A stretch of DNA of 64,000 nucleotides from Escherichia phage S127 BCL3. Position 1 is the stretch's first letter, and each line of letters starts with the position of its first letter. Positions 6,421-8,473 of this stretch are shown here, one piece after another. The notes under the pieces are model-generated. The model did no database searches, had not been told where the DNA came from, and worked only from the letters and a program-made list of their open reading frames with translations. The translations under genes and the position numbers were made by a program. The stretch lies in sequence record OQ626344; one strand, written 5' to 3'.

Positions 6421-7356
6421 ATGACAAATGAGGAATGTATGATGAAGTATTTTAATGCAGACGACCTGGTTGACAAAGGTCTTGTAACCAGCAGATATTA
6501 CTCGGATCTTGGGTTAAAGATCTATAAATATGCCAGAAAAGTATTCTACAACAATTTATGGCATTTGTCTCCTCGTTTGCTGGAGTGCCGAGGCATTGTT
6601 GTCGGTAATGAAGGAAATGTTGTGGCATGGCCCTTCACAAAAGTGTTTAACTTGGGAGAAAATTCCACCAACCTGCCTGACAATAAACTTGTGACGGCGG
6701 TAGAGAAAAAGAACGGATTCCTTGGTGTGGTTTCATCTCATAAAGGTGAACTATTGTTCTCAACAACCGGGTCTCTTGATTCTCCATATTGTAACCTCGC
6801 AAAGGAAACAATCCAGGAGCAATGTGGTAATTTAGATCTTATCAAGAGGGTTATGGGCCATGAAAACATGACATTCATGTTTGAAATTTGTCACCCTTCA
6901 GATCCGCATATTGTTCAGGAAGATCATGGCGCATATTTGATAGGTTGCAGATATAATGATTCTGGAATAATGCTACCAGAAGCAGCTTTAGATGGGATTG
7001 CCAAATACCTTGGTGCAAAACGTCCTCACACTGTGCGTGAAATTCCGTTCAGCTATGCAAAAGAATTAGCTGCAGAAACAAGAGGTGAAGGGTATATGAT
7101 TCGTAAGCCTTACTACCCTTATGATCTGCAGCTGAAGATCAAGTCTCCATACTATTTGGCACGGAAGGCCGTAATGAGGGGTAAAGCTTGGAAGATTTGG
7201 GATGATGATATCTTTAAACGTGTTGACGAAGAGTTTTACGGCATGGTAAACTTCATCCGTAGAAACTACACAGAAGATGTGTGGAACTGCCTCCTGGAGC
7301 AGGAACGCCGTGAGGTACTTGACTGCTATTTCCACAACGAGGACTATATGCAATGA
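6421..7356 (+). CDS. putative RNA ligase (Rnl2-like nucleotidyltransferase)
   Basis: Motif I EKKNGF (K-x-N-G), motif IV EGYMIRK, motif V KIKSP; ATG at 6439 has the stronger RBS. Confidence 0.5.
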   Translation: MTNEECMMKYFNADDLVDKGLVTSRYYSDLGLKIYKYARKVFYNNLWHLSPRLLECRGIVVGNEGNVVAWPFTKVFNLGENSTNLPDNKLVTAVEKKNGFLGVVSSHKGELLFSTTGSLDSPYCNLAKETIQEQCGNLDLIKRVMGHENMTFMFEICHPSDPHIVQEDHGAYLIGCRYNDSGIMLPEAALDGIAKYLGAKRPHTVREIPFSYAKELAAETRGEGYMIRKPYYPYDLQLKIKSPYYLARKAVMRGKAWKIWDDDIFKRVDEEFYGMVNFIRRNYTEDVWNCLLEQERREVLDCYFHNEDYMQ

Positions 7357-7703
7357 AGAAGTTGATTGTGTGGCTGGATGACTTGAGAGATCCGTCAAAT
7401 TATGGGCTCCCAGATGCTCTTTGGCTAAAGAATTCCTCTGAGTTTATGGATTTTATTAACGATAAGGGAAAGCTCTACAGGCGCGTTTCTGAGTGGCACA
7501 TGGACAACGACCTTGGAGAGGTATTTGAAGGGTACGATTGCCTATCTATGCTGGAGGAAAAATTTGTATTTGGCAAGCCTCCTGTAGTTGACAACGTGAA
7601 GATTTTCGTGCATACTTCTAACCCATCAGCTGCTCGTAAATTCATGCTTGCTGCTGACTCGTTTAAAAAGTTTGGAATAGAGATTAAACAAAACATCTAC
7701 TGA
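7353..7703 (+). CDS. hypothetical protein
   Basis: 116 aa ORF overlapping upstream stop; no motif recognised. Confidence 0.5.
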   Translation: MKKLIVWLDDLRDPSNYGLPDALWLKNSSEFMDFINDKGKLYRRVSEWHMDNDLGEVFEGYDCLSMLEEKFVFGKPPVVDNVKIFVHTSNPSAARKFMLAADSFKKFGIEIKQNIY

Positions 7704-7711
7704 GGACACTT

Positions 7712-8473
7712 ATGCGACGACTGATCATTATCTCCGGTGCTGGTTTGAGCGCTGAATCTGGTATCCCAACTTTCCGATCTGGTGGCACTGCAATGTGGGA
7801 GAATTTCAGCATCGATGAGGTGTGTAACATCCACACCTTTGCCAAGAACTACTATAAGGTTCATGACTTTTACAATGCACGGCGTGTAGCTCTTGGCAGT
7901 GTTGATCCTAACCTTGCACATCTCCGGATCGCTGAGTGGTATTCCCGCTGGTCTGGTCGTGTGATCAACCTGACCACCAATGTAGATGATTTGCTGGAGC
8001 GTGCTGGTGTAAAACATGAAGATATTTTACATGTCCACGGATATTTGCCAGAAATAGTCTACGAGGATGATGAAGGGAGTAACGTCATTAAAGACATTGG
8101 ATACTCTGAGGTAGATGCAAGCAAGTATACTTGGGTTAAGCCTAATGTAGTGTTCTTCGGAGAAGTAGCTCCAAAGTATACAGACATGTATGACCTGTTG
8201 ACTTCTCTGACGAGCAATGATATGGTTATCCTTGTAGGGTGCTCCAACACAGTTATCAATTTTAACTGGGAGCTATTCCCTGCCTGTAATAAGGGGACCA
8301 AACTGCTGATCGTTAACAAATACGACTCACAGCATTTAGGGGAGAATGGCATTTCACGTAGTGACATTTACCAGTATGAGGATCGCGGCATCCCAGTTTG
8401 GTTTAACGGGGCTGTTGACGCTTTCTCTGATAAAACATTCATTGACATCGTAGAAAACTTTATGGAACTGTAA
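7712..8473 (+). CDS. Sir2-family (sirtuin-like) NAD-dependent enzyme lacking the zinc ribbon
   Basis: GAGLSAESGIPTFR, NLTTNVDDLLERAG and HG catalytic His motifs; no CxxC pairs. Confidence 0.8.
   Translation: MRRLIIISGAGLSAESGIPTFRSGGTAMWENFSIDEVCNIHTFAKNYYKVHDFYNARRVALGSVDPNLAHLRIAEWYSRWSGRVINLTTNVDDLLERAGVKHEDILHVHGYLPEIVYEDDEGSNVIKDIGYSEVDASKYTWVKPNVVFFGEVAPKYTDMYDLLTSLTSNDMVILVGCSNTVINFNWELFPACNKGTKLLIVNKYDSQHLGENGISRSDIYQYEDRGIPVWFNGAVDAFSDKTFIDIVENFMEL

Follow-up and report, generated by a model that had tools for sequence, protein, structure and literature searches.

A zinc-less sirtuin in an RNA end-repair gene neighbourhood of Escherichia phage S127 BCL3

The locus and its genes

The window analysed here is a stretch of 64,000 nucleotides (nt) from Escherichia phage S127 BCL3 (sequence record OQ626344; one strand, 5' to 3'), and our subject is one of its genes, which encodes a zinc-less protein of the Sir2 (sirtuin) family and lies within a cassette for the healing and sealing of RNA ends (Table 1). 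The original prediction for this DNA placed a single Sir2-like enzyme, dependent on nicotinamide adenine dinucleotide (NAD), at positions 7353–8473. The Sir2 gene does lie inside that range, but the plus strand holds two open reading frames (ORFs) there, of 116 amino acids (7353–7703) and 253 amino acids (7712–8473); the second encodes the sirtuin, whereas the first is a separate gene for a cyclic-phosphate-processing receiver-like (cREC) protein. Between positions 6400 and 9300 the window is 99.0% identical to Escherichia phage vB_EcoM-ECP32 and approximately 94.7% identical to isolates of rV5, and it is a segment of an rV5/FV3-type Vequintavirus genome.

The genes for the Rnl1-type RNA ligase, the cREC protein, the sirtuin and a MazG-like protein form, in that order, one tight four-gene operon. 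The stop codon of the ligase overlaps the start of the cREC gene in an ATGA at 7353–7356, and the cREC stop lies inside a GAGGA, 8 nt ahead of the sirtuin ATG. This spacing and the cREC domain itself (PF20274) make plausible the earlier suggestion that the 116-residue product is a partner of the sirtuin. A GC-rich hairpin at 9208–9226 probably marks the end of the operon. Genes for a P-loop kinase and a metallophosphoesterase run divergently out of the same gap of approximately 100 bp as the ligase operon, and the actual unit is therefore better described as a six-gene RNA end-healing and sealing cassette within 5348–9201; whether the DNA ligase at 9830–11113 is a member of the same functional unit is uncertain. 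This RNA-repair context is the most informative feature of the locus, and it had escaped the original prediction. The homologues of the kinase in related phages are annotated 3'-phosphatase/5'-polynucleotide kinase, and those of the metallophosphoesterase (184 amino acids when counted from the ATG used in related records) phosphoesterase or phosphohydrolase. Six homologues of the cREC protein were compared; its receiver-like residues (W-DD-RDP, H-DNDLGE, HTSNPSA, KFML) do not vary among them, and the acidic receiver-like site is intact.

Table 1. Features of the sirtuin locus (positions in nt of the window; aa, amino acids)
Feature	Position	Strand	Basis or remark
Calcineurin-like metallophosphoesterase, candidate RNA 3'-end healing enzyme	5348..5902	-	Pfam Metallophos_2 1.4e-06, Metallophos 6.8e-06
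P-loop polynucleotide-kinase-like protein, 136 aa, kinase domain only	5910..6320	-	Pfam AAA_33 2.7e-10
Sigma-70-like promoter match, TTGACA-17-CAAAAT with TG, just 5' of the RNA ligase start	6381..6409	+	Consensus scan only
Rnl1-type (T4 RnlA family) ATP-dependent RNA ligase, 311 aa	6421..7356	+	Pfam RNA_lig_T4_1 1.1e-14; PHROG 562 4.2e-66
cREC protein, 116 aa	7353..7703	+	Pfam cREC_REC PF20274 4.5e-14, 53.3 bits against a cutoff of 27
Zinc-less class III-like sirtuin, 253 aa	7712..8473	+	Pfam and PHROG matches, PDB alignments, AlphaFold2 model
NAD-binding motif GAGLSAESGIPTFR, residues 9-22	7736-7777	+	S16, F21, R22 invariant; G9, A10, G11 in at least 90%
FYNARR, class III Y-x-x-R anion pocket, residues 53-58	7868..7885	+	F53, Y54, R57, R58 invariant in 63 sequences
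NLTTNVDDLLERAG, residues 86-99, then catalytic HG, residues 109-110	7967-8008 and 8036-8041	+	N90, D92, H109 invariant
Cysteine-free zinc-ribbon remnant: beta-hairpin, DIGY motif, KPNVVFFGE; residues 110-151	8039..8164	+	AlphaFold2 model and alignment
MazG-like nucleotide pyrophosphohydrolase, 237 aa, last operon gene	8488..9201	+	PHROG 671 5.4e-22; Pfam PRA-PH merely 0.084
GC-rich hairpin, terminator match on both strands, 7 nt past the MazG-like stop	9208..9226	.	Consensus scan: 8-bp stem, 6 GC pairs
ATP-dependent DNA ligase, conserved SIR2 neighbour	9830..11113	+	Pfam DNA_ligase_A_M and OB_2

The sirtuin and its relatives

The 253-residue product matches the Pfam family PF02146 (Sir2) with an E-value of 1.1e-26 (94.3 bits against a cutoff of 24); the match spans residues 9–181 and model positions 1–178 of 180. 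Against PHROG 2162 ('Sir2') the value is 8.7e-109. The Sir2 fold, which the original prediction had read from sequence motifs, is borne out by the Pfam match and by the motifs GAGLSAESGIPTFR, NLTTNVDDLLERAG and HG. The protein is 100% identical to the product of an ECP32 gene annotated 'NAD-dependent protein deacetylase of SIR2 family', and among the matches listed the gene is called Sir2 in most phage records. The similarity goes far beyond chance, with 844 homologues at E ≤ 1e-5 and relatives in 976 of 50,697 phage records, that is, in approximately 2% of the phage genomes that have been sequenced. An AlphaFold2 model, built on an alignment of 63 sequences that are 51–98% identical, has a mean local confidence (pLDDT) of 90.1 and a predicted template modelling score (pTM) of 0.88, and it has the two-domain sirtuin fold, with a Rossmann domain and a small domain. 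The protein is acidic (isoelectric point, pI, of 4.9; net charge -13), as is its family (median pI 5.1). It is a standalone domain, and when the ten longest relatives from an exhaustive profile search (7284 cluster representatives at E ≤ 1e-3, 165 at E ≤ 1e-30) were scanned for domains, merely tandem SIR2 domains, WG repeats or unassigned extensions were found.

Conservation was read from the same 63-sequence alignment, in which S16, F21, R22, F53, Y54, R57, R58, N90, D92, H109 and G110 are invariant, as are G130, Y131, K143, P144, F148, F149 and E151. The catalytic residues N90, D92 and H109 align with the QNID and HG motifs of CobB and SIRT5; it was on such an alignment of the catalytic His and Asn that the original prediction had let its assignment to Sir2 depend. 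Y54 and R57 align with Y102 and R105 of SIRT5 (within FYHYRR) and with Y92 and R95 of CobB, in which the FYNARR hexapeptide is the same. CobB has been engineered at several positions, the variants in the PDB list being A76G, Y92A, I131C/L, V162A/G and V187Y; these positions map to C38, Y54, V91, approximately I126, and V146 of the phage protein. The NAD-cleaving centre is retained, and so are the hydrophobic tunnel and the anion-binding pair of class III sirtuins. Every catalytic residue being invariant under purifying selection, the product is an enzyme under selection; the decoy that the original prediction had put forward, or any other pseudo-enzyme, is therefore rejected.

The protein is, by sequence and by model, best described as a divergent branch of the CobB/SIRT5-like (class III) sirtuins. 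A sequence search of the PDB returned deacylase sirtuins only, with SIRT5 and E. coli CobB as the best matches (E approximately 5e-21 with the single sequence, 7.6e-30 with a family profile), and Foldseek ranked CobB first (E approximately 3e-18, template modelling score 0.75–0.85), followed by SIRT5, Sir2Af1 and Sir2Tm. It is not, however, a CobB equivalog, because its NCBIfam scores are approximately half of the curated cutoffs or lower: the best match, NF001753, gives 120.9 bits against a cutoff of 243, and NF040867 (CobB) 102.3 against 320. The phage protein has in common with CobB and SIRT5 (PDB 1S5P, 6RXJ, 2B4Y) the signatures GAG..SGI..FR, HG and P-x-VV-x-FGE, and an N-I/V-D core, which is QNID in CobB and TNVD in the phage protein (TQN having become TTN). 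Yet the identity is only 24–27%; the zinc cysteines are missing and the second knuckle is deleted, GTS..VxP is replaced by GCSN.VINF, there is a C-terminal extension of approximately 45 residues (205–253), and the protein is encoded by a phage, in an RNA-repair operon.

The zinc segment deserves separate comment. The sirtuin has three cysteines (C38, C177 and C191) and no CxxC, and a CxxC was found in none of its 120 closest homologues (at least 48% identity). The original prediction, that the CxxC..CxxC module of canonical deacetylases is absent, is correct for the CxxC pairs; the sheet scaffold of the small domain, by contrast, is kept in the AlphaFold2 model, in which strands 110–118, 124–128 and 142–146 are present and the block has a pLDDT of 94–96. 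Relative to zinc-bearing relatives, the first cysteine pair is substituted, and a loop of approximately nine residues that holds the second pair is deleted. To speak of lost zinc ligands, a deleted second knuckle and a retained ribbon scaffold would thus be more accurate than to speak of an absent module. We compared this segment among the best 150 relatives from which the stretch between HG and KPNVVFFGE could be extracted: the closest of them have no cysteine in it, and remoter ones have CxxC..CxxC around the same I-G-Y motif. The cysteines are kept in relatives from jumbo phages (contigs of 607 kb and 279 kb) but not in the T5-like, rV5-like and phi92-like versions. The loss of zinc arose inside a phage-borne CobB-like clade, in which the jumbo-phage members retain CxxC..CxxC, and it does not signal kinship to defence SIR2 domains.

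This last point bears on the analogy drawn in the original prediction, from the lack of zinc, with the NADases of bacterial defence. These enzymes (ThsA, DSR1/2, SIR2-HerA, SIR2-APAZ and Avs5) have in common with the phage protein a Sir2 Rossmann core, the want of a zinc ribbon and the cleavage of NAD+. The profile comparison between defence-type SIR2 and sirtuins, which the original prediction had itself proposed, gave a clear result on the sirtuin (CobB/SIRT5) side. The defence-type Pfam family SIR2_2 scored 14.2 bits, under its cutoff of 24.5, and the PADLOC defence models gave a single weak match (E 0.012, 13 bits) to an unrelated candidate model, so that the analogy is not supported. Defence SIR2 domains are not the closest structural neighbours in the fold ranking. 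Nor was any defence partner (SLOG, HerA, APAZ/pAgo, STAND or TIR) found fused to the gene or in its operon, the neighbours being Rnl1, cREC, the MazG-like protein, the kinase and the phosphoesterase.

Gene neighbourhoods of related phage sirtuins

The locus is an instance of a known phage gene family in a known neighbourhood, and the Sir2 annotation, the loss of zinc and the RNA-repair context have all been published. In section 3.7.3 of their paper, Iyer, Burroughs, Anantharaman and Aravind (2022; Viruses 14:1977, PMC9503650) describe for Escherichia phage V5, the prototype, and Proteus phage Mydo a 'type 2' neighbourhood of a sirtuin, a T4-like tRNA ligase, cREC, a nucleotide kinase, MazG and, optionally, a calcineurin-like phosphoesterase. 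All six genes are present in the window at 5348–9201, with no substantive difference from the set as given in that section. The same section predicts that the phage sirtuin is KptA-like and takes off RNA 2'-phosphates, and records no Macro neighbour for it; the loss of zinc ligands, the Y-x-x-R pocket and the acidic pI are not mentioned there. Skliros et al. 2016 (PMC5107563) had reported that a zinc ligand is missing from the 'finger' domain of the Sir2/CobB proteins of the Vibrio phages phiSt2, phiGrn1 and KVP40, had listed T5 among the Sir2 carriers, and had proposed that these proteins deacetylate acetyl-CoA synthetase, a role tied to the NAD+ salvage genes of the phages. The KVP40 homologue belongs to the same family as the sirtuin of the window (44.5% identity); in the window, however, no Nampt adjoins the gene, and its neighbours are RNA-repair genes instead. 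The genome paper on rV5 does not mention the sirtuin gene.

We surveyed 60 viral loci that contain SIR2 relatives for the neighbour genes of the window within 6 kb, and grouped the SIR2 proteins at 75% identity or more into 22 clusters. RNA-repair genes stand beside SIR2 in 10 of the 22, and these come from three phage lineages. In 13 loci from phages of 140–150 kb, with SIR2 proteins 43–57% identical, the ligase, kinase, phosphoesterase, MazG-like and DNA ligase genes all occur within 6 kb; the gene order is reshuffled, and cREC is present in some of these loci and absent from others. The T5-like loci have none of the cassette genes of the window near SIR2. A gene for HAD_SAK_2, a 'Swiss Army Knife' RNA-repair phosphatase, follows instead, two small ORFs 3' of SIR2, in 27 of 29 such loci, which independently confirms the T5-type variant. 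In T5 itself, where T5.102 is a homologue with 58% identity (Sir2 in the reference record), SIR2 and HAD_SAK_2 lie within one promoter-to-terminator unit, T5.100–T5.107. Another Rnl1 gene is found 1.2 kb upstream of the zinc-bearing relative on the 607-kb jumbo-phage contig. The surveyed loci thus contain three independent RNA-repair contexts; a fourth, of 2H, Nudix-cREC and PIN, is described for Serratia phage BF in the part of PMC9503650 that treats such neighbourhoods. Other recurrent neighbours of SIR2 are ATP-dependent DNA ligase and NrdD, with Nampt in one lineage.

Several of these neighbourhoods (numbered here as in the survey) contain details worth recording. The ATP-dependent DNA ligase is as constant beside SIR2 as the RNA ligase and is often immediately downstream; it follows SIR2 directly in the L024 group (6801), L041 (7062), L052 (7114), L054 (3696) and L060 (7241). 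In L041 (5302–5787), L052 (5079–5561) and L055 (5090–5575) an ORF of approximately 161 amino acids lies between the kinase and SIR2, and cREC is absent. This ORF, which has no Pfam match in either of the two copies scanned (L041 and L052), may be a non-homologous replacement of the enzyme that opens the cyclic phosphate. On L059, a phage contig of approximately 120 kb, Nampt (4057–5490) is directly upstream of a zinc-less SIR2 (5959–6705), with endonuclease VII and NrdD downstream, an NAD-salvage rather than an RNA-repair context. On L062, the 279-kb jumbo-phage contig, a zinc-bearing SIR2 (6001–6711) stands between a DUF4326 protein (5721–6005) and a nucleoside 2-deoxyribosyltransferase-like protein (6713–7195), a neighbourhood possibly related to an NAD/ADP-ribose network. 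The SIR2 neighbours in the phi92-like loci L033, L044 and L053 are DUFs only or gave no Pfam match. In T5-like loci HAD_SAK_2 is followed by two paralogous DUF7415 proteins, T5.106 and T5.107 in T5 (7651–8076 and 8089–8478 in L004), which are conserved.

Some records carry misleading names at these loci. In ECP32 (L002, MK883718) the name 'RNA ligase 1 and tail attachment protein' has been given to the cREC gene (20954–21304) and 'Sir2-like protein' to the MazG-like gene (22089–22802), and T5.105 (L063, NC_005859 11589–12095) is labelled Sir2, yet by Pfam it is the HAD_SAK_2 RNA-repair phosphatase. The misnaming in ECP32 and T5 is annotation spill-over between neighbour genes.

Possible roles of the sirtuin

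We think it somewhat probable that the sirtuin is functionally coupled to RNA repair, because the cassette stays with SIR2 despite the divergence of the proteins and the reshuffled gene order. The best single model, to which we would give a probability of only about 0.4, is that of an active NAD+-cleaving sirtuin that carries out a KptA/Tpt1-like step in an operon for the repair of broken RNA, probably tRNA. Cleavage by a host ribonuclease would leave 2',3'-cyclic-phosphate and 5'-OH ends; the cyclic phosphate would be opened by the cREC protein, the metallophosphoesterase or both, the 5' end would be phosphorylated by the P-loop kinase, and the break would then be sealed by Rnl1. The 2'-phosphate left behind would be taken off by the sirtuin in the manner of Tpt1/KptA. 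For the RNA substrate and the order of the steps we follow, by inference, Iyer et al. 2022.

In chemical terms, a phosphate oxygen would attack C1'' of NAD+ with departure of nicotinamide, and H109 would aid the attack of the ADP-ribose 2''-OH on the phosphate, so that ADP-ribose 1'',2''-cyclic phosphate would be released, to be cleared by the cREC protein or the MazG-like enzyme. By analogy the chemistries of sirtuins and Tpt1 fit together, in that an oxygen nucleophile acts on C1'' of NAD+ and the 2''-OH, assisted in sirtuins by the conserved His, then resolves the adduct. Tpt1/KptA is a proposed functional analogue only: in its reaction, likewise, NAD+ donates ADP-ribose, nicotinamide leaves and the ribose 2''-OH then attacks, and it too is associated with healing-and-sealing systems of RNA ligase and kinase, but it has the ADP-ribosyltransferase fold whereas the phage protein is a Rossmann-type sirtuin, and the two are unrelated. 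No match to Tpt1/KptA was obtained in Pfam, NCBIfam or PDB searches with the phage sirtuin. We know of no sirtuin for which RNA 2'-phosphotransferase activity has been shown. An addition of our own concerns the class III pocket. Y54 and R57 are invariant and align with the residues of SIRT5 and CobB that bind the acyl carboxylate; they would therefore suit an anionic group on the substrate, and the Y-x-x-R pocket could hold a phosphate in place of a carboxylate.

A number of observations weigh against the proposed role in RNA repair. More than half of the SIR2 clusters (12 of 22) have no recognisable RNA-repair gene within 6 kb, and SIR2 is equally often found beside DNA ligase or NrdD, and once beside Nampt; part of the linkage to RNA repair may thus be the generic clustering of early genes. 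The sirtuin itself is acidic, with its pI of 4.9, and has no extra nucleic-acid-binding domain. The equivalents of CobB A76, I131, V162 and V187, which we take to line the acyl-lysine tunnel, are kept or conservatively changed (C38, V91, I126 and V146, together with F148 and F149), and such residues are not obviously needed for an RNA substrate. If the metallophosphoesterase takes the cyclic phosphate off entirely, as it might, no 2'-phosphate would be left, and the host, E. coli, already has KptA. Searches of the literature for experimental work on a phage Sir2, including those of T5 and of Vequintavirus, found none.

A stronger form of the proposal, which we regard as doubtful, is that this is the first sirtuin-fold enzyme with RNA as its physiological substrate. 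As a convergent substitute for Tpt1/KptA, it would act at repaired tRNA breaks, either removing a 2'-phosphate or ADP-ribosylating a terminal phosphate; a backbone phosphate would sit in the re-used Y-x-x-R pocket, and the shortened small domain, free of metal, would make room in the cleft for RNA. Were the sirtuin directed at RNA, these phages would have a 2'-phosphate repair route of the yeast and plant style and not the T4 route.

The main rival to the RNA-repair model, possible although we hold it to be unlikely, is a CobB/SIRT5-type NAD+-dependent lysine deacylase that probably favours succinyl or malonyl groups. Its targets would be proteins of the host or of the phage, and it might, for instance, restore the activity of acylated enzymes in the course of infection. 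Such a deacylase is what homology alone predicts, and it is what Skliros et al. 2016 (PMC5107563) argued for zinc-less Vibrio-phage homologues. It accounts for the invariance of Y-x-x-R, the succinyl-lysine signature, and for the retention of the FGE loop and of the residues at the engineered CobB positions, and an acidic pI is normal in CobB-like enzymes. ATP-dependent ligases adjoin SIR2 in many loci, and one could speculate that a deacylase clears acyl groups from the catalytic lysines of the RNA and DNA ligases encoded next to it. Against a deacylase, the score of 121 bits (cutoff 243) places the protein far under every curated CobB model, the zinc module that shapes the peptide-binding cleft is truncated, and an invariant VINF stands where the GTS..VxP region has its conserved V-x-P. 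Moreover, a deacylase would leave unexplained the repeated and independent linkage to RNA end-healing enzymes.

A mono-ADP-ribosyltransferase like SirTM, SIRT4 or SIRT6 is an improbable alternative. Such an enzyme would tag a host target or the 5'-phosphate end of RNA or DNA, and its products would be handled further by the cREC and MazG-like proteins. The machinery for NAD cleavage is intact, large phages do modify host proteins in this way (Alt and Mod of T4 ADP-ribosylate them), and relatives have neighbours from the NAD/ADP-ribose network, namely Nuc_deoxyri_tr2 in L062 and Nampt in L059. However, identity to SirTM is just 13%, SirTM ranks below all the deacylases, and the catalytic His typical of deacylases is retained. 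No macrodomain was matched by Pfam among the flanking genes scanned in the window and the related loci, some small ORFs having been left out of the scan.

Least probable of all is the idea, from the original prediction, of a free NADase (or the inactive decoy dismissed above) that would alter the NAD+ pools of the host or weaken defence based on NAD. Zinc-less SIR2 domains of bacterial defence systems do act as NADases, and Nampt beside the L059 homologue could be a link to nicotinamide recycling, but such a neighbour is compatible with any NAD consumer, the protein is not of the defence type by Pfam, PADLOC or fold ranking, depletion of NAD+ is a weapon that host abortive-infection systems use against phages, and T5, which carries the 58%-identical homologue, encodes an NAD-dependent DNA ligase of its own, which makes depletion of the pool unlikely.

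There is no new kind of system at this locus; the gene is annotated Sir2 in hundreds of phage genomes, among them T5 and rV5-type therapeutic candidates. If the sirtuin is directed at RNA, the chemistry of sirtuins would extend to nucleic acids, and there would be an NAD-dependent branch of phage counter-defence against host nucleases that cleave tRNA; if it proves to be no more than a deacylase, it would clearly exemplify the editing of host or viral protein acylation by a virus.

A cluster of seven tRNA genes (1600–2411) lies 3.5 kb from the RNA-repair cassette. Six of its members are ordinary phage tRNA genes; the other is a tRNA-like gene at 1844–1942 (minus strand; 97–99 nt), for which ARAGORN reads a four-base anticodon, 'atcc', and assigns no amino acid; its Rfam tRNA score of 35.5 bits is a modest pass of the gathering score of 29.

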